Source: an uncultured Gammaproteobacteria bacterium (GTDB taxonomy: Bacteria > Patescibacteriota > Patescibacteriia > JAHIZJ01). From it: a DNA stretch of 64,000 bases. The stretch is from the NCBI GenBank assembly GCA_964594455.1, contig CAZQLY010000004.1:61972-125971 (forward strand), read 5' to 3'. The position numbers were made by a program, and so were the translations under genes. Below are positions 194-48,500 of this stretch, in pieces. Each line of letters starts with the position of its first letter. Positions within the stretch are counted from its first letter, which is position 1. The notes beneath the pieces are model-generated. The model was not told where the DNA came from. It saw only the letters and a list, made by a program, of their open reading frames with translations, and made no database searches.

Positions 194-273
194 ATATAAG
201 TATAATAGCCTGAAAGAGGATTTTTCACAAGAAAAAAAGACGGTCATGTACATGCCGTCTTGAACGTTTGTTC

Positions 274-618
274 TCATTGCCATTCCTCTTTGGGATAGGC
301 TTGACTGGGGTTAGGAATTCTCCTTGAGCTGTAGATAGAAAACTCTACTCTCAGCACAACCAGTGTGACGATGAAGCTTAAGGCGCCGAAAAGGAGCCAC
401 TTGGGTAGGTGATGCATCACAAAAACGTTCAGAATCACCGCGCCCACCGCTTGCATCACTCCAAAAAGCACCATTGCCAAAATCCGGTCTGTGCCAGCAA
501 TCCCAGAGTAGTAGTAATCGATGCCGTATCTGGTCTGCTTCCGAAGAGTCCGGAAGAAGAACAAGACGCAAACGATAGCCAGCGTTGGTAATGCCAGCAA
601 CACATTCAGTCCTACCAT
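274..618 (-). CDS. small integral membrane protein, hypothetical
   Basis: 114-aa ORF with 3-4 hydrophobic helices. The overlapping 311..694 ORF is low-complexity and reads as spurious. Confidence 0.5.
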   Translation of the reverse strand: MVGLNVLLALPTLAIVCVLFFFRTLRKQTRYGIDYYYSGIAGTDRILAMVLFGVMQAVGAVILNVFVMHHLPKWLLFGALSFIVTLVVLRVEFSIYSSRRIPNPSQAYPKEEWQ

Positions 619-683
619 TATCTTCCTCCAGTGTTAAAAAGAGCTTGTTCTGTCCAAACCTACGGGAGCTTATCAAATACAGG

Positions 684-1550
684 TTATTTGTCAATCATCA
701 ACTCGCAAGCAATACCATCTAAATCACTATCTATCAAATGAATGTCCTGCTGAGTTTTTTCTAAACAACAATCGTATAAGCCTTGAGCTTCCTCTGGGGT
801 GTTAAAGTCACGACAGTCATAGAAGTTGTAATCGCAAAAGCAAGTTGGAGCATCCTCCAATACCTCGGTATCATTCGTAGCCTGATATTCGGCTGTTTCG
901 GCCCGCTCAGGAGTATTTTGTTCCCAGATGCTCAATAACTTTTCATCACAACCGCCCCACAAACCGGCTCTAGATTCACGAGCCTGCTGTTCGGCTTTTA
1001 GCATTTCTTCTTCGTATTTTATATCAGGCGGAACCGTAAAGGCTCTAGCAAAGCCCTGGCTCACCAGTTCTAGGTTAATAAAAGTATTATCAACATAAAC
1101 ATAGCGCAACAGACGGCCATAGCGATCGGTGTCCCTGACATCTTTTATCAATCGAACTTCTTGCCCTTCAACCAATTCTTTATTCTTGGCCGTGGCTTCA
1201 GCCGCGTAGCAATCTGGAGGATTGTGTGTTAATTCGGGAGTGTCCATACCTAGGTACCGCACTGTTTCACCGCTTTCAATTTTAATTGTATCTCCATCAA
1301 CTACCTCAATTACCTTTACTAAATCACCGATGATTGATTTACCAGCCCCATTATTTTGTTCTTCAATATTTACTTCTGATTCATCTTCAATCGAATCAGC
1401 GTCTGAACTGTTGGTGTTTATTTCCGACCAAACTAAAAATAATGCAAAAATGATTAAAAAAACTACATCTCGTTTATTAATCGAGTTAATTTTCACTTTA
1501 GTTTCTAATATTATTGATGAATAAATACACCCGTGCCAACATAAGCCCAA
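684..1550 (-). CDS. secreted thermonuclease (SNase-like) with a C-terminal Excalibur Ca-binding domain
   Basis: N-terminal hydrophobic anchor. SNase motifs VVDGDTIKI...RYLGMDTPE...RLLRYVY. C-terminal DxDxDGxxCE Excalibur motif (DSDLDGIACE). The start may be GTG at about 1496 rather than the ATG at 1550. Confidence 0.8.
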   Translation of the reverse strand: MGLCWHGCIYSSIILETKVKINSINKRDVVFLIIFALFLVWSEINTNSSDADSIEDESEVNIEEQNNGAGKSIIGDLVKVIEVVDGDTIKIESGETVRYLGMDTPELTHNPPDCYAAEATAKNKELVEGQEVRLIKDVRDTDRYGRLLRYVYVDNTFINLELVSQGFARAFTVPPDIKYEEEMLKAEQQARESRAGLWGGCDEKLLSIWEQNTPERAETAEYQATNDTEVLEDAPTCFCDYNFYDCRDFNTPEEAQGLYDCCLEKTQQDIHLIDSDLDGIACELMIDK

Positions 1551-2941
1551 TTATAAAGCCACTCGGCGTTTTCGCGATTAATATTTACGCAGCCGTGGCT
1601 CATCTTGTGTCCCCAATTATTATGCCAATACGCGTAATGTAAATAATAGTTGGTTGTGAAACGTAAATTGAAATCCACATCTTCCAGATCATAATTATCC
1701 GGATGGTCCGGGCCATAGTCCCATTGATAGTCCATTTTATCTATCTTGGCGGAAACCTCATAATCTCCTTCCGGCGTGGGATATTTATCTATGCCAGTGG
1801 AAACTAGGAACGTTCTGACTAATTCACCGTTTTTATAAGCGTACAGCCTTTGTTCGCCGATAACGACATCAACATATTTATAATAATCAGTCCGACCCTG
1901 ATTAGTATCACGACCCGGTGCAGTAACTATTTCCGTCCGGCCATCGGAATCTATGTCACCTACAGCAATGTTAACTCCTCCTCGGAAATCAGATTCATAG
2001 GCGAAGAAGTTCTGGGGCATAACGTGGCCACTAGCTTCAAAGGCTCTGACCTGAGGTCCACCGCCGGCTGCCACCGCCACCAGAAGCTCATCAAAACCAT
2101 CATTATCTATATCACCAGAGGCGACATGAAAACCACTCTGAACCTGTTCTGGCCAGCCTTCAAACATACCGACTATGGTTCGAGCTTCGTTAGCTTTGTA
2201 AGTCTTGACCCTGGATCGGCCAAACCTATAAATAGAAGTAATGATTTCTGATTCTTCTCCTCCATCGACATTGCCCACGGCTACATCAACCCCGCCCTGA
2301 TCCCGTTCAGCAAATGGATATATATCCAGATTTTTCGTTACTCCAAATCTGGTAAAAATTCGCACATGTGGTTGAGCCCCAACCCCCACGCCCGTCACGA
2401 TCTCACCTTTGCTGTCACCATCGACATTGCCACAAGCGACATTTATTCCGCCTCGATAGTCCGGATGATAAGCATAAAAACCAGGCGTGAAAATCGACTC
2501 GCCCAAATAGTTTAAAGTTCTGACATGAGGCCCGCCGCCTGGTCCGGCTCCGGTAACAATTTCGTATATTCCATCATTATTAAGATCACAACTAGCCACC
2601 TTTACCCCACCGCGAAAACTTTCCGGATAGACAAAGAAGCTGGATATTTGAGTTCCATCTTGTTTTAGTACACGAATATTTGGTCCACCACCCGGTCCTG
2701 CTCCGACAATGATTTCGTTGGCCCCGTCACCGTTTACGTCGCCAATGGCCAGAGAAGCACCACCTTTGAAATCTTCGGCATAGGCCAGCCAAGAGTCTTC
2801 TTGATAAAGCTTTTTGCTGTCGTATATTTTTATTTCCGGCGAACGGTAACTTGTCGCTTCAACTTCTGTGCCACTAATAACTAACCCCCCTAGCGTAATA
2901 ATAAATACAAAAAGGCTTATTCTCATAAAATAAATTTTCAA
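1511..2941 (-). CDS. secreted FG-GAP/VCBS-like beta-propeller repeat protein fused to a C-terminal L,D-transpeptidase (YkuD) domain
   Basis: Signal peptide. About 7 repeats of GDxNGDGxxEIVxGxGPGGGPxVRxF. C-terminal YkuD catalytic motif HG...SHGCVNI. Confidence 0.8.
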   Translation of the reverse strand: MKIYFMRISLFVFIITLGGLVISGTEVEATSYRSPEIKIYDSKKLYQEDSWLAYAEDFKGGASLAIGDVNGDGANEIIVGAGPGGGPNIRVLKQDGTQISSFFVYPESFRGGVKVASCDLNNDGIYEIVTGAGPGGGPHVRTLNYLGESIFTPGFYAYHPDYRGGINVACGNVDGDSKGEIVTGVGVGAQPHVRIFTRFGVTKNLDIYPFAERDQGGVDVAVGNVDGGEESEIITSIYRFGRSRVKTYKANEARTIVGMFEGWPEQVQSGFHVASGDIDNDGFDELLVAVAAGGGPQVRAFEASGHVMPQNFFAYESDFRGGVNIAVGDIDSDGRTEIVTAPGRDTNQGRTDYYKYVDVVIGEQRLYAYKNGELVRTFLVSTGIDKYPTPEGDYEVSAKIDKMDYQWDYGPDHPDNYDLEDVDFNLRFTTNYYLHYAYWHNNWGHKMSHGCVNINRENAEWLYNWAYVGTGVFIHQ

Positions 2942-42811: not shown

Positions 42812-43843
42812 TTAACGCGGTTTGACGGCACGCTTAATCATATGAGCCACATTTTGGTTCATATTTTTTGGTATTAATTTGGTTGTCGGTTTCTTTTCCT
42901 GAAATATGCGAAAAATTTCATCGGCAAAAGCTTGGCCCACAGTCTTAACATTTTTGAAATCAAAAATTATACTGCTAAATTTTTCCAATCCAGCTGTCAC
43001 CCGACGTGCTTGAGAACGCGATAAGTAATCTGAATTCATATCATGCAGACGGATTGATACCTTTGTCTTGGAAAAACTATAAGCTGAATCGCCATATTCT
43101 TGAAACACCTTATCTAACGAGCGTTTCGATCTCTCACTGATTAAAAACGAGACTCTGGTGCCGGAAGTTCTTTTGACATCCCGGATAAAAAAATCATCAA
43201 TTTCATTATTTACTACTAGCTTCTTCCGTCCGCTCTGCAGAGTATATAAATCGCCGACTTTTGAAGTAAAAAATATTCCCTCGCCGCTGTGGTTTTTTGG
43301 CGCGGTAGTCTGCTTTCCCTTCAGGATAAAATCAACCGCTGCCAGCTCAGAATCCAATTTGTGCTGACGCATGATGTTGTTAAAAACACCAATACCCTTA
43401 TCGTTTATCTCGAATCGCACATTACCGGCCATCCTGAAGATGCTAAGATTTATCTCTCTGGACCGGGAGTGTTCTATGGCATTATTAAGCATTTCAGTAA
43501 AAGCATAATCCAAAATCGCAGATACATTTTCAGTCAAACCGATATATATCCCGGTCGAGCGCTTAATCTCTTCCAAGACTAAATCTTCATCCAGTCCTCG
43601 GTTAATCAGTCTTTTACGAATGCTCGTTATTTTCTTCCGAGCGCTTAAAACAGCCTGGGGCTTAGCCAGGACATAACGAATTTTATTAGTCCGCCCCACC
43701 GGCACTATCTCGCCCCGATCAACCAGTTCCCGGAAAAACTTATTGACATAGACTCTGGAAAAACCCGATTTATGCACCATCTCAGAGGGCCGCAGACTGC
43801 CACGTTTTTTAATTATTTCTAGTATTTCTTTACTTAAATCCAT
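42812..43843 (-). CDS. wHTH + GHKL ATPase-like + DUF4325 (STAS-like) regulatory protein
   Basis: N-terminal wHTH. N-box EMLNNAIEHS. C-terminal IIFDFKNVKTVGQAFADEIF resembles DUF4325. Confidence 0.55.
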   Translation of the reverse strand: MDLSKEILEIIKKRGSLRPSEMVHKSGFSRVYVNKFFRELVDRGEIVPVGRTNKIRYVLAKPQAVLSARKKITSIRKRLINRGLDEDLVLEEIKRSTGIYIGLTENVSAILDYAFTEMLNNAIEHSRSREINLSIFRMAGNVRFEINDKGIGVFNNIMRQHKLDSELAAVDFILKGKQTTAPKNHSGEGIFFTSKVGDLYTLQSGRKKLVVNNEIDDFFIRDVKRTSGTRVSFLISERSKRSLDKVFQEYGDSAYSFSKTKVSIRLHDMNSDYLSRSQARRVTAGLEKFSSIIFDFKNVKTVGQAFADEIFRIFQEKKPTTKLIPKNMNQNVAHMIKRAVKPR

Positions 43844-44032: not shown

Positions 44033-44437
44033 TTAGCTTATATCTATAATATAAGTGCTGATAAATTTCTTTGCGGCGGCAATGGTTTCGTCTTTCAACT
44101 TTGGGTTGCTTTCCGTTACCCACTTGGTAAAGTTATACAGCTCATGAGTATCTACTCGCAGCCATCTATTATTCTTATACAAAAAATAAAAAAGCGTAGT
44201 CATGGCAATCCTCTTATTGCCGTTGCGAAAAGGATGATTCTTAATCATGAAATACAATAGTACAGCCGCTTTACCCTCTAGCCCTTTGTAAAGTTCTCGA
44301 CGGCTAAAGGTTTGAAACGGTGATTTAATGCAAGATTCCAGGATGCCCGGGAATCTAGTATTAAATTCTGGAATTGTTTCATTCCAGGTCATTGTCTCCC
44401 GGGCCAACCGGTGACCAACATACTCGATCTCTTCCAA
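44033..44437 (-). CDS. doc: Doc/Fic-family toxin (death-on-curing)
   Basis: HPFRNGNKRIA matches the Doc motif HxFx(D/N)GNKR. Confidence 0.8.
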   Translation of the reverse strand: MEEIEYVGHRLARETMTWNETIPEFNTRFPGILESCIKSPFQTFSRRELYKGLEGKAAVLLYFMIKNHPFRNGNKRIAMTTLFYFLYKNNRWLRVDTHELYNFTKWVTESNPKLKDETIAAAKKFISTYIIDIS

Positions 44438-44448
44438 ACTAATGGTTT

Positions 44449-44697
44449 TTATTCTTGTCCGAGCAATTTTAACGTCTCCCCGTATTCCTTAACCGTTTTT
44501 TTTACCGCCTTTTCAATATTCTTCTTGCCTTCTTCAGTTAGCTCCAATTCCGAACTCGCTATTTCTGAAGCCGGAATAACATAATTCCTGCCAACTTTTT
44601 CCGCTTTGATAACACCGCTTTTTATTTTCTTAAATACAGCAATACGGCTAATTCCCAGCATATTAGCAGCTTCTGTTGTTGAGTAGTATTTTTTCAT
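44449..44697 (-). CDS. HTH antitoxin partner of Doc
   Basis: YSTTEAANMLGISRIAVFKKIKSG is an HTH. It sits 11 nt upstream of doc. Confidence 0.6.
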   Translation of the reverse strand: MKKYYSTTEAANMLGISRIAVFKKIKSGVIKAEKVGRNYVIPASEIASSELELTEEGKKNIEKAVKKTVKEYGETLKLLGQE

Positions 44698-44951: not shown

Positions 44952-45767
44952 CTAGGCATCAATTATCCCTCTAGGATTAGCAATATATTTCTTTTTATTT
45001 TCTTCTAATTTGAAACTTATTTTATAATTATTTTTATTATCCGGTTCGTATTTATAAACAAATTCATCTCTATTTAACGGATCGTATGGCATTTTATTTA
45101 TATAGGAATTATTATTAACCAAATAATCATATAAATCATTCCAATGCTTTGCATTAGGGTATTCGTTTTTATCACTATAAAATAGTTCTAAAGCTGATTG
45201 CATGGTTCTAATATCTGCCAATCTCTTTGCATCTCTCGCTTTCAACCTCGCTTTATTTAAAGATACTATTGCTATTATAGTTAACAATAATATAAAAGCA
45301 GCAAAAATTAATATCACATATAAAGTCGAGCTAATATTTTTCAAAAATGGAAACGCTCTGTACAATAAAAAAATAAAATTAAATATTATCATCCAACTTA
45401 TCAGAGAATAGAATGGCTTAAAAGGACTATATAATAATTTATAGTCATTTTTTATTGATCCAAATCTAAAAAATTCTCCAACTTGATTTTTTACATGTTC
45501 CAAATATTCATATTCGCTCATTAGTCTTTGTAACGTAATGAAGACAACAATACCAAAAAATAATAATGGTAACAACAAAAACCAGGTTATTAGAACATCG
45601 GTTCTTTCATATATTTTATAATTAATCAATGCTATTGCTACTGTGATCAAAGAAAAAACTGTCGTAAAATAAAATTTTATTAAATTTAAATAAATATCAT
45701 CAATCTTCTTCATCCGATCGGTGCTTTGTTTAAATTCTTCTAACAAATATTTTTTAAAATCATCCAT
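44952..45767 (-). CDS. 4-TM membrane protein with a C-terminal type IV pilin-like segment
   Basis: After the last TM helix, ARLKARDAKRLADIRTMQSALELFYSDKNEYP resembles the pilin/pseudopilin conserved region. Confidence 0.45.
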   Translation of the reverse strand: MDDFKKYLLEEFKQSTDRMKKIDDIYLNLIKFYFTTVFSLITVAIALINYKIYERTDVLITWFLLLPLLFFGIVVFITLQRLMSEYEYLEHVKNQVGEFFRFGSIKNDYKLLYSPFKPFYSLISWMIIFNFIFLLYRAFPFLKNISSTLYVILIFAAFILLLTIIAIVSLNKARLKARDAKRLADIRTMQSALELFYSDKNEYPNAKHWNDLYDYLVNNNSYINKMPYDPLNRDEFVYKYEPDNKNNYKISFKLEENKKKYIANPRGIIDA

Positions 45768-45805: not shown

Positions 45806-45945
45806 TACTGATTCTACTCATTAATAATGAAAGTGTGGAAAATGCGGCTTGACATTGTAAACACTATATGATATAGTCTACTCGGATGACTTCCGTCTGA
45901 ACTGTGGCGTTTATCGCCGCGTTCCCGCAAGGGATAGGACGGGAG
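45806..45945 (+). ncRNA. candidate small RNA with its own promoter and intrinsic terminator
   Basis: TTGACA, then 17 nt, then TATAGT. The downstream transcript can fold into a three-way junction: P1 cuuccguc/gacgggag, P2 ggcg-uuuau-cgcc, P3 uccc-gcaa-ggga. A U-tract follows. Convergent with the DUF3800 gene. Confidence 0.3.
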
Positions 45946-45947
45946 TT

Positions 45948-46580
45948 TTATTTTGGCCAAACTTGAATATTCATTTCCCTATGTGCAATCATCCTATGAT
46001 ACTTTTCATGATTCCTTTTCTTTTTTAGACAATATCTATTAATCATACCCGCAATATAATCAGCAAGTTGTAGTAAATTATTACTATTTGATCTTTGCAT
46101 TTTCACTTTTCCAATACATTTTTTACCTTCATTGTTTATTTTTCTTCTTAAATAAGTGGCTAGCTGATTTCTGAATTCTTGATTACCGCTCTTGTCAATA
46201 ACAACCGTAGCTTTCTCCAGATCATCGTGAGCATTTTGGAAAACTAGATTACATGCATATTTATAAAAAGAATGCTTGTCTTTAAAGCCGTCTCCCCATA
46301 ATTTTTTTGGATCTTTATTAATAACAATTCCGTAATAAAAAAATTCATAAGGAGACACCGCTTGTAAAAAAGCACTCCTTACTCTGTTAGAGTTCCTTTT
46401 GAAATGGAATTCTTCATTATTATCCCAACCTAATTCATGTTTTAGCAGAGCAATTCTCCGATCGCAGGCTTGGGCTTCCTCATTATCAGAAAACAACACT
46501 AAAGCAACAGTAAAATACCTGCTTGATCCTTCTTTTATTTTTAAACCGGAATCACCGGATTCATCAATAAATACCAACAT
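45948..46580 (-). CDS. DUF3800 family protein
   Basis: The N-terminus MLVFIDESGDSG is the DUF3800 signature. Confidence 0.7.
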   Translation of the reverse strand: MLVFIDESGDSGLKIKEGSSRYFTVALVLFSDNEEAQACDRRIALLKHELGWDNNEEFHFKRNSNRVRSAFLQAVSPYEFFYYGIVINKDPKKLWGDGFKDKHSFYKYACNLVFQNAHDDLEKATVVIDKSGNQEFRNQLATYLRRKINNEGKKCIGKVKMQRSNSNNLLQLADYIAGMINRYCLKKKRNHEKYHRMIAHREMNIQVWPK

Positions 46581-46639
46581 ATATTTTGTTCTTCACCCTA
46601 ATCCTAACAACAACCCAGATTCTTTACAATATATAATAA

Positions 46640-46828
46640 CTAAACATGCCATAACTGAAACTGCGGGTATGCTTCATTGTCTATGAAATCTAAGTGTTTA
46701 TCATCTTCCCAGACTAACTCTGTGAAGTTCGTATAATCCTCACCATAGCCACGACACATTACTTTTAATCTGATAAATGGATTAAAACGTAATATAAATT
46801 TTGCTGCTAATGGTGATAGGTTAATAGC
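46640..46828 (-). CDS. small hypothetical protein (62 aa) between the DpnI and DUF3800 genes
   Basis: Internal Met of ORF 46640..46981 that avoids overlap with DpnI. Confidence 0.3.
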   Translation of the reverse strand, partial: AINLSPLAAKFILRFNPFIRLKVMCRGYGEDYTNFTELVWEDDKHLDFIDNEAYPQFQLWHV

Positions 46829-46832
46829 CATA

Positions 46833-47603
46833 TTAAGTGAGCTGATAATATCCGCGTTTAATAAAATCAAGATATCCTTTATCACGAAGTATTTGCAGCT
46901 GCTGACGTATTTTATCTTTAATATGTTTGTTATCAGGATGAAGATTAGATAACTCTTTTTCAAATTTATACATATCCTCAAGACAAAATTCTTGCTTGTT
47001 GAGTTTTTCTATACATCTCATGATATCAAGTAGCCAACCTTTCGCTGATATTTCTTTTTCGTCTCGTAGAAATAAAGATTTCTTCCAGCTGGCAAGCACT
47101 TTTTCTGTCGGCTCAATTTGTTTATCTCTAACAAAAAAGATTTTCCCTGTTTGTGGAATACTCTTTAAGAGTATATTACAACCCACCCAACCTGCTCGGC
47201 GCGCCGTGGACAAAAGTGGTTTTCTCTTTTCGATAATATCTGGAACAAAGAAGTGTTTTGGAATAACCAAAAAATTTACTACCTCAAAATTCGTTAGGTC
47301 ATAATTCAGCAGGAAAAAGTTTGGATTGTTACTACTCGTAAGCCGTTCAAGCATTGTATGGTAAGCACCATCTACAATCTTTGTGCCAACAGTATTGTGT
47401 TTGCTTTTTAATTCATAATCCTCTCGGCAATTTGAACAGTAAAAATCGGCAACAGGCTGGTTGTTGGGATACTTATCAATATTGTATTGCCCACAATTTG
47501 GACAGAAGGCGGAATTATCAACCCAATTTTCAGTTAACACGCGTGCTTTTTGGGAATTACTTTTATACTTATCGGCAATTGATGCGCCCAGTTTTAATCT
47601 CAT
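46833..47603 (-). CDS. dpnI: DpnI-family Type IIM (methyl-directed, Gm6ATC) restriction endonuclease
   Basis: Near-collinear with S. pneumoniae DpnI as I recall it: YKSNSQKARVLTENWV, CPNCG...FYCSNC...ELKSK (PD-(D/E)XK plus Zn), and a winged-helix C-terminus KIRQQLQILRDK. Confidence 0.8.
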   Translation of the reverse strand: MRLKLGASIADKYKSNSQKARVLTENWVDNSAFCPNCGQYNIDKYPNNQPVADFYCSNCREDYELKSKHNTVGTKIVDGAYHTMLERLTSSNNPNFFLLNYDLTNFEVVNFLVIPKHFFVPDIIEKRKPLLSTARRAGWVGCNILLKSIPQTGKIFFVRDKQIEPTEKVLASWKKSLFLRDEKEISAKGWLLDIMRCIEKLNKQEFCLEDMYKFEKELSNLHPDNKHIKDKIRQQLQILRDKGYLDFIKRGYYQLT

Positions 47604-47745
47604 AAAATCTTATTATTCAACCTCACCTTTTGTCTTCCCTGCCTTCTTTTTCATATTCAAATCATACCTCCAAACCACAACAAAATCAAGTAATAATTAA
47701 CAATTAATAAATAACGAAAAAACCGCCTGGGTTGGCTGGGCTTAG

Positions 47746-47765
47746 AACCTTTTAACTAAAAGGTT
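47746..47765. repeat. REP-like 20-bp palindrome AACCTTTTAACTAAAAGGTT (copy 1 of 4)
   Basis: The other copies are at 48481-48500, 48990-49009 and 49426-49445, all in intergenic spacers. A conserved left flank gggttgNctggg is shared between copies 1 and 4. Confidence 0.7.
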
Positions 47766-47883
47766 TAGTCATTTGACGAATGATTGGTGGAGGGGTTGAC
47801 AAATCGATATCTTTACCTTATTATTACTGGTTGTTCTTTCTTGGAATTCAGGCCTGTCACATATAAACACAGGAGGGGTGTAA

Positions 47884-48395
47884 TGACAGCCAAACCGCAG
47901 TTAAAGGAATTCGAAATCCGTAACTGGGCTGGCAGTGGTTCTTGCCAATATGTGTATGCCAAGTTCGAGGATGGCTGGATAGTCTTCTCCGGATCTGGAC
48001 GAGGAACTACGTCCATCAGCAATGCCGAGAGAGTGATCCTGGCAATTGCTAAGTTGGAGCACATCAAACCGCTTGAGTGTCGCTGGTTTGACCTTCAGAC
48101 CCATCGTATGTATGGCCATCGCCGTCACTGGGGAGAACCGAGTGAATTCATGTTTAATGAACTTCAGATAGTAGAAGCTCCACCCGCTCAGGTGCCAGCT
48201 GGCGCCACTGTCATAACCAATGGAACAGGCATCAGTGTGAGCCACTGGGTCTTCGTCGAATGCCCTTCAGAAGTCATTGAACTGTTCTCGGATGTGATTG
48301 GTCCCAATCCTTACCAAAAAAAGAACCGTGATGACCACCGTCCTGGCAGTGAAGCACACCTTGACCAACTTGCCAACAATGCACCGTGCAACTAA
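47884..48395 (+). CDS. hypothetical protein
   Basis: RBS aggagggg. GC-rich. Flanked by REP-like palindromes. Confidence 0.5.
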
Positions 48396-48480
48396 GGTTG
48401 GTTGGGTTCAGCGATCGAAACTACCGTGATTCGGTCGCTTTTTTTTGACCAAAAACAACTCAAACGTGAAGAGTGTATAT

Positions 48481-48500
48481 AACCTTTTAACTAAAAGGTC
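48481..48500. repeat. REP-like palindrome copy 2
   Basis: aaccttttaactaaaaggtc. Confidence 0.65.

Follow-up and report, generated by a model that had tools for sequence, protein, structure and literature searches.

A DpnI-like restriction gene and a DUF3800–small RNA unit as probable neighbouring modules in a low-GC island of an uncultured bacterium

Genes and features at the locus

Here, we describe a locus within a 64,000-nt stretch of contig CAZQLY010000004.1 from an uncultured bacterium (assembly GCA_964594455.1; this whole 64-kb stretch is called the window below), where a gene for a DpnI-like Type IIM restriction endonuclease lies close to a gene for a DUF3800 protein. Three open reading frames (ORFs) follow one another on the minus strand, namely, those for the DpnI homologue of 256 aa (46833..47603), a conserved small protein of 63 aa (46640..46831) and the DUF3800 protein of 210 aa, a predicted type-2 RNase H-like nuclease (45948..46580). 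The ATG of the small ORF is 1 nt past the DpnI stop codon, and a 59-nt spacer (46581..46639), in which neither a strong promoter nor a terminator is predicted and which is the probable junction of two modules, separates the small ORF from DUF3800. On the plus strand, a small RNA (sRNA) of the DUF3800-IX class (Rfam RF02968; 45888..45951) runs toward the DUF3800 gene from a sigma-70-type promoter, TTGACA-17-TATAGT with an extended -10 TG (45849..45877). A first-pass annotation, made from the letters alone, had already reported the ORFs. All of them were recovered at the same positions, and the two strings that it quoted, KIRQQLQILRDK and MLVFIDESGDSG, are both present; the middle ORF is there as described, on the same strand and after DpnI, with a length of 63 rather than 62 aa (ATG at 46831, stop at 46640). 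The DUF3800-IX RNA had no place in that reading, which proposed a three-gene operon encoding a DpnI–DUF3800 two-component anti-phage system. The comparisons presented below make it very probable that the locus consists of two modules instead, one formed by DpnI and the small ORF (module A), the other by DUF3800 and the sRNA (module B).

The DpnI homologue and the small ORF behind it

The first of the three ORFs does encode a DpnI with a zinc site and a winged helix, as first annotated. Its translation matches the Pfam families DpnI (3.4e-80) and DpnI_C (5.9e-34), the PADLOC model mREase_II for Type II methyl-directed restriction endonucleases (8.4e-116) and R.DpnI in PDB entry 4esj (1.1e-89, residues 2-254; 52.6% identity over 253 aligned positions), and it comprises an N-terminal PD-(D/E)XK domain, which holds the zinc site, and the C-terminal winged helix. 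R.DpnI is a monomeric enzyme, both domains of which recognise fully methylated Gm6ATC, with cleavage following; published functional residues include the catalytic E25, D53, E64 and K66, the zinc site of two CXXC motifs (C34, C37, C56 and C59), the cleft that binds the methyl group of m6A (L129, R135, W138 and G140), the residues that read out G:C (N48, D78 and R126) and the DNA contacts of the winged helix (K229 and R231) (PMC3424567, PMC4117772). Mapped onto the window protein, which has two one-residue insertions relative to R.DpnI (numbering is shifted by +1 after residue 104, and K229/R231 correspond to K231/R233), all 17 of these 17 residues are identical, the four zinc cysteines and the four catalytic residues included; the loss of catalytic residues that the first-pass annotation had allowed for is thus not seen on alignment. 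The same positions are invariant or nearly so in 21 close relatives, with the four catalytic residues invariant throughout. Because all 17 functional residues are conserved, the enzyme looks intact and functional. The protein collection contains at least 8000 clusters of DpnI homologues, and the closest among the matches listed, at 75-80% identity, are found in Patescibacteria.

The absence of a methyltransferase, originally noted for the immediate vicinity of DpnI, extends to the whole window: in a motif scan of its ORFs of at least 120 aa, (D/N/S)PP(Y/F/W/H) occurs in none. To judge by its sequence, cutting directed at Gm6ATC by this enzyme would require a Dam-negative host.

Two sets of loci were used for comparison. 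The DpnI set consists of 80 metagenomic loci around DpnI relatives, 490 kb in total, of which 70 extend at least 220 nt past DpnI and were usable for counting the small ORF. The DUF3800 set consists of the best 80 of 255 relatives detected in GTDB genomes, each species being represented by one genome, with up to 6 kb of flank on either side of each gene, which was searched by tblastn with the window DpnI. Homologues of the small ORF (60-77% identity) are located behind DpnI at 24 of the 70 usable loci, mostly after a gap of 1-5 nt, and in none of the 80 DUF3800 loci. The small ORF evolves as a protein (median pN/pS 0.25 over 210 pairs), and its homologues form 215 clusters, every one of them annotated 'hypothetical'; several are on contigs equal in length to contigs with DpnI matches. 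The C-terminal half of the 63-aa protein is acidic; no Pfam family was matched, and a confident AF2 model (pLDDT 84) has no significant structural neighbour in the PDB. Given that it recurs behind DpnI and in no DUF3800 locus, the small protein most likely belongs with DpnI as its translationally coupled partner and does not link it to DUF3800. As a lesser possibility, it could regulate or inhibit Type IIM restriction, in a role not recognised before: here is an unannotated family, coupled to many DpnI genes, that may modulate methyl-directed restriction.

The nearest known counterpart of module A is found in Streptococcus pneumoniae. The window enzyme has the same two-domain architecture as the pneumococcal R.DpnI (Type IIM; PDB 4esj/4kyw), the host being an uncultured bacterium in our case. 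In the pneumococcal dpnC-dpnD cassette, dpnD comes after the endonuclease gene, and the window DpnI likewise has a second gene behind it, in this case the one for the 63-aa protein without any Pfam match. Homology to dpnD could not be shown, and the protein does not match DpnD/PcfM, which we take to be the relevant family. We know of no function assigned to dpnD.

The DUF3800 protein and its small RNA

The third ORF was likewise correctly recognised as encoding a DUF3800 protein, with a match to PF12686 well above the cut-off (1.9e-16; 61.5 bits versus 21). Its relatives amount to 1513 matches, of which the 120 listed share 65-72% identity and are mostly 209-210 aa long. The residues that are invariant in the family alignment are D6 and E7 (in FIDESG), D129, and Q171 and D174 (Q171xxD174), and the window protein has both of the motifs described for DUF3800, the N-terminal DE and the C-terminal QxxD (PMC7736814). 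The only significant PDB neighbours of an AF2 model built from the family alignment (pLDDT 85.6, pTM 0.85) are type-2 RNases H, including RNase HII (1eke; Foldseek E 4e-4, TM 0.61) and RNase H3 with an RNA/DNA hybrid (4py5). Thus, the structure prediction that the first-pass annotation had recommended as a check for a nuclease fold did yield one, a predicted fold of the RNase HII kind. An RNase H assignment has been made for DUF3800 before: the DUF3800 of retron type VII was modelled as RNase H2-like (PMC7736814), and CRISPR surveys label the domain an 'RNase H fold nuclease' (PMC10910872, PMC12669027). In our model, D6-E7 are at the end of strand 1, D129 is at the end of strand 4 and Q171xxD174 is in the long C-terminal helix, a placement that would fit the carboxylates expected of an RNase HII; the predicted carboxylate site is apparently intact. 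NCBIfam yielded nothing useful. Among plasmids (PLSDB), only distant DUF3800s were found (23-27% identity), and no DUF3800 relative was found among phages (INPHARED).

The sRNA is antisense to the DUF3800 gene, converges with it and reaches its stop codon, with an overlap of 4 nt. The match to RF02968 scores 56.3 bits, against a gathering cut-off of 36.8, and covers model positions 1-67 of 67. In related loci, the same sequence is found just 3' of DUF3800 on the opposite strand, after a TTGACA/TATAAT-like promoter and a conserved GGAAUUG. The RNA, of ~70 nt, folds into a three-way junction (P1 of 11 bp, P2 and P3), which is followed by a U-run. This structure is borne out by an alignment of 62 copies, in which 16 of the 20 pairs show compensatory double changes; 95.8% of the cells are paired, compared with 77.2% after shuffling and 33-50% in slid registers, and the covariation score is 0.62, compared with 0.25 after shuffling (reached in 0 of 500 shuffles) and 0.07-0.17 in slid registers. 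Some G·U pairs are nearly invariant (U43·G58 is present in 60 of 62 sequences), and because the other strand would have C·A mismatches in their place, the functional RNA is the plus-strand transcript.

From the same alignment, we built a covariance model of our own, R1, which finds one copy in the window (80.8 bits). In the DUF3800 set, it finds a single copy, antisense and directly downstream of the gene, in 79 of the 79 testable loci, the eightieth contig stopping at the stop codon. In the 490 kb of the DpnI set, R1 finds none and the Rfam model finds one, in locus L116, next to that locus's own DUF3800 gene; R1 missed this divergent DUF3800-IX copy, and its counts therefore apply to the window subfamily only.

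The promoter of the window sRNA, which matches the consensus at 11 of 12 positions, is the best match anywhere in 44.8-47.9 kb, and the equivalent promoter scores at least 10/12 in 42 of 78 loci. Upstream of DUF3800 genes, promoter scores are little above those of coding-sequence controls; no conserved promoter or leader was detected there across the 80 loci, the sequences being unrelated, and the preceding gene points the same way as DUF3800 at 50 of 67 loci. Since the promoter is kept on the sRNA side and the region upstream of DUF3800 is not conserved, the conserved unit is the ~0.75 kb with the DUF3800 ATG at one end and the sRNA promoter at the other. We also considered the sRNA as a trans-acting antisense of the mRNA 5' region and rejected this candidate, given that cognate duplexes were not superior to non-cognate or shuffled duplexes (p = 0.21).

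The association between DUF3800 and DUF3800-IX is already known from Rfam and from the 2017 paper of Weinberg et al., in which the motifs DUF3800-I to DUF3800-XI, eleven RNAs unrelated to one another, are defined by the DUF3800 genes that they accompany, with no suggestion as to what they do (PMC5737381). What is new here concerns the subfamily of the window: its RNA is always present as one copy that converges with the gene and abuts the stop codon, with a consensus promoter of its own. The puzzle of the DUF3800 RNAs dates from 2017, and the present locus reduces it to a minimal unit of one protein and one ~70-nt RNA with its own promoter, in 100% linkage. On viral contigs from IMG/VR, convergent DUF3800-IX RNAs occupy the same position at 9 loci and DUF3800-VII RNAs at 2. 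The latter (L177, 5813..5899; L179, 5771..5856) are convergent and immediately 3' of DUF3800 genes, and the tail-to-tail arrangement is therefore common to two or more of the eleven classes of DUF3800 RNA.

DpnI and DUF3800 as neighbours

The first-pass annotation had made recurrent adjacency the test of its two-component system. DpnI lies within 6 kb of a member of the DUF3800 subfamily in 0 of the 80 loci, the sole tblastn match (L001) being the window's own sequence. Conversely, a DUF3800 gene is present at only two of the 80 DpnI loci, L116 and L147, where the proteins share 34% and 23% identity, respectively, with the window DUF3800 and belong to distant subfamilies. Moreover, the gene order in L116 is DUF3800 (264..944, plus strand), DUF3800-IX RNA (982..1050, minus strand) and DpnI (1724..2500, plus strand), as opposed to DpnI, small ORF, DUF3800 and RNA in the window. 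The top-120 match lists of the two proteins have no contig in common except the window's own, and all-against-all clustering of the flanking ORFs reveals no protein family that adjoins DUF3800 at more than 9 of the 80 loci. Because the adjacency does not recur, a DpnI–DUF3800 system is unsupported. The three-gene operon does not hold as a unit either: the arrangement is not conserved, the small ORF going with DpnI and DUF3800 with its antisense sRNA. Of the overall interpretation proposed at first, the identities of DpnI and DUF3800 and the intact active site stand, and the joining of the two into one system does not.

The DUF3800 subfamily itself spans more than 10 phyla at 53-72% identity, the 80 loci coming from Patescibacteria, Omnitrophota, Nitrospirota, Planctomycetota, Thermodesulfobacteriota, Acidobacteriota, Proteobacteria, Chloroflexota, Bacteroidota and Verrucomicrobiota, among others. 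Components of restriction-modification (R-M) systems are the commonest families flanking it, with at least 14 of 117 immediate neighbours at 74 loci (N6_Mtase/HsdM, 6; N6_N4_Mtase, 3; HsdS, 3; C5-MTase, 2), and HepT and AbiEii-like ATPases are occasional neighbours. An R-M neighbour is thus typical of the DUF3800 module, and DpnI specifically is an atypical one. The adjacency of DpnI and DUF3800 most likely reflects co-location in R-M and defence islands and not a functional pair. Both modules are of already known kinds, and the locus illustrates that genes which simply adjoin one another in a defence island may be taken for a system.

Interpretation of the locus

The best explanation, and in our judgement a reasonably probable one, is that two independent, horizontally mobile modules lie side by side in a low-GC island, with module B being antitoxin-like. 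In module A, DpnI would cut incoming Gm6ATC-methylated DNA in a Dam-negative host, with the 63-aa protein coupled to it. In module B, with its ~0.75 kb, the DUF3800 nuclease would be accompanied by an sRNA transcribed toward the gene from a strong promoter of its own; this sRNA, being abundant, would bind the cognate nuclease and restrain it in the fashion of an RNA antitoxin, and phage-caused loss or alteration of the sRNA would set the nuclease free, such that the infection is aborted. We put forward the antitoxin-like mechanism, taken by itself, as a tentative proposal. It is suggested by the strict 1:1 linkage of protein and RNA, by the strong promoter of the RNA as opposed to the weak or absent promoter of the protein, by the clade-specificity of the RNA partners (eleven motifs), the horizontal spread and the R-M neighbours, and by the part that DUF3800 plays elsewhere, as the effector of retron type VII (PMC7736814) and as an accessory protein of CRISPR loci of the abortive-infection type, including those of Cas12a2/a3 and Cas13 (PMC10910872, PMC12669027). 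With about the same caution, DUF3800 and DUF3800-IX might be taken to represent a new class of RNA-controlled, RNase-HII-like toxin or abortive-infection system, with the logic of type III toxin–antitoxin (TA) systems in a new fold and layout, found widely in Patescibacteria and in over 10 further phyla. The mechanism of DUF3800, whatever it is, would inform the retron type VII, Cas12a2/a3 and Cas13 systems.

Several points weigh against this explanation. Searches of PDB chains with DUF3800, whether in single-sequence or in profile form, returned noise only, and the protein, as modelled, is RNase H-like at the fold level only. Its toxicity, RNA binding and anti-phage activity are hypothetical, and no experiment on a stand-alone DUF3800/RNA pair was found in the literature searched. 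The layout, with a single, convergent, downstream sRNA, is unlike that of every characterised type III TA system. The remaining DUF3800 flanking genes, and indeed most of them, are housekeeping genes, so that the defence-island context is partial. As for module A, the observed/expected ratio of GATC is 1.04 within the 64-kb window alone, which is uninformative on Dam in the host. Finally, the three ORFs could be co-transcribed at this particular locus.

Among the other explanations, one that we consider rather unlikely has the sRNA acting purely in cis, as a convergent antisense or terminator that sets the 3' end and the stability of the DUF3800 mRNA, without binding the protein; type-I-TA-like 3' overlap and transcriptional interference are variants of the same idea. 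The overlap of the sRNA 3' end with the stop codon, which leaves no separate mRNA terminator, suits this scheme, as do the full complementarity that a read-through mRNA would have to the sRNA and the combination of a strong sRNA promoter with a weak or absent mRNA promoter. However, DUF3800-I RNAs are found on either side of their genes and in either orientation (Weinberg et al., PMC5737381), and neither a terminator nor a plain antisense needs a three-way junction or junction and loop nucleotides that are invariant across more than 10 phyla. Furthermore, the G·U pairs point to selection on the folded plus-strand RNA, and cognate-specific pairing with the mRNA 5' region was not found.

A guide or targeting role of the sRNA, with DUF3800 as an RNA-guided nuclease of the RNase H fold, is somewhat less likely again. 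The variable positions of the RNA are the paired arms of P1, and there is no variable single-stranded segment; the unpaired parts, namely, GGAAUUG at the 5' end, the junctions and the loops, are kept from one phylum to the next; and the terminator-like stem with its U-run at the stop codon leaves no space for a 3' guide. The nearest folds, moreover, are not RuvC but RNase HII and HIII, enzymes that cleave hybrids in their RNA strand. These features stand against the general kinship of the RNase H-like fold, which is common to RuvC and PIWI nucleases, the obligatory 1:1 linkage and the eleven RNA motifs tied to DUF3800 clades, and the occurrence of DUF3800 with Cas12a2/a3 and Cas13 loci. A precedent for such a role exists, given that the HEARO and IS605-orfB RNA motifs are the omega-RNAs of IscB and TnpB.

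It is quite improbable that module B is a housekeeping-type enzyme for RNA processing or ribonucleotide excision, with a dedicated RNA substrate or cofactor and no defence or TA role. The RNase HII/HIII fold and the mostly housekeeping nature of the flanking genes are what such an enzyme might be expected to show, but its patchy, cross-phylum distribution at 53-72% identity, the low-GC island in which it is found here, the copies on viral contigs, the R-M genes enriched nearby and the employment of DUF3800 as a retron and CRISPR accessory are not. Least of all do we credit a single operon of DpnI, small ORF and DUF3800 forming a multi-component anti-phage system, in which DUF3800 assists or backs up methyl-directed restriction: the shared strand, the gaps of 1 nt and 59 nt with no terminator predicted between the genes, the DUF3800–sRNA module ~0.7 kb from DpnI in L116 and the frequent adjacency of R-M genes to DUF3800 modules are outweighed by the absence of DpnI from all 80 loci of the DUF3800 subfamily, the mere two of 80 DpnI loci with DUF3800 (of other subfamilies and, in L116, in another order), the lack of shared contigs in the top-120 lists bar the window's own and the different conserved partner of each gene.

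Comparison with known systems

Under the two-module explanation, module B invites comparison with several known entities. With respect to the RNA, there is no difference in kind from DUF3800-IX: the window copy is above the gathering threshold of RF02968, matches the full model and adjoins a DUF3800 gene. The likeness to type III TA systems, typified by ToxIN, would lie in the combination of a protein nuclease with a cognate, strongly expressed, structured RNA, and in a compact unit that spreads horizontally and is often near defence genes. In ToxIN, the RNA gene is upstream of the toxin gene on the same strand and consists of tandem repeats, and the RNA is processed by an endoribonuclease of the Kid/MazF type. 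By contrast, the window has a single convergent downstream copy and a predicted fold like that of RNase HII, and tandem repeats placed upstream and co-directionally were seen in none of the loci.

Retron type VII, in which a DUF3800 effector goes with a reverse transcriptase and its ncRNA, shares with module B the DUF3800 effector domain, the DE motif, the RNase H2-like model and a nucleic-acid partner alongside (Mestre et al. 2020, PMC7736814). The differences are that the partner in the window is a plain sRNA and not msDNA, with no reverse transcriptase found alongside, and that the window protein keeps Q171, which corresponds to the QxxD glutamine that the retron proteins are without (PMC7736814). 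Specifically, no reverse transcriptase domain was detected in the ten ORFs scanned in 42.8-49.3 kb or among the top 25 neighbour families. Of the PADLOC candidate system PDC-M04, component A (PDC-M04A) matches the window DUF3800 weakly (2.5e-9), no other PDC-M04 model matches the neighbours, such that the second component was not found among them, and no publication on this candidate turned up in the literature searched.

Genomic context and neighbouring genes

From ~44.7 to 47.7 kb, the GC content of the window is 25-37%, and it reaches 42-54% by 47.7-48.9 kb. The low-GC segment also carries an HTH_17/Doc pair. The suggestion that this part of the window is a defence and mobilome island holds to that extent, a low-GC stretch with an HTH/Doc pair being compatible with an acquired island of the defence type; repeats bounding the DpnI–DUF3800 stretch, as a sign of an inserted element, were looked for and not found.

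The HTH_17 and Fic/Doc pair (44033..44697, minus strand) adjoins a gene for a DUF4325 protein, and its Doc matches the PADLOC candidate PDC-S23 at 8e-22. The DUF4325 protein (42812..43843, minus strand) combines a winged-helix-like N-terminus, a histidine-kinase-type ATPase and the DUF4325 (STAS-like) domain. Between this pair and the sRNA promoter, an ORF of 271 aa (44952..45767, minus strand) is predicted to form several hydrophobic helices and resembles the type II secretion pseudopilin GspG weakly at its C-terminus (7e-4), just under the cut-off; it lies in the lowest-GC part of the island, with ~25% GC.

On the other side, two copies of a 22-nt direct repeat, TAGAACCTTTTAACTAAAAGGT, are located at 47743..47764 and 48478..48499. 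The copies are 95% identical, and each contains the palindrome ACCTTTT...AAAAGGT. They flank an ORF of 203 aa (47784..48395, plus strand), which has no Pfam match and a GC content above that of the adjacent DpnI gene. This repeat pair may be a REP-like element or mark a small inserted unit.

Elsewhere in the window, a c-di-GMP-II riboswitch (RF01786; 18386..18505, minus strand) is present with 60.2 bits, against a cut-off of 53.5, and carries a 36-nt apical insertion.

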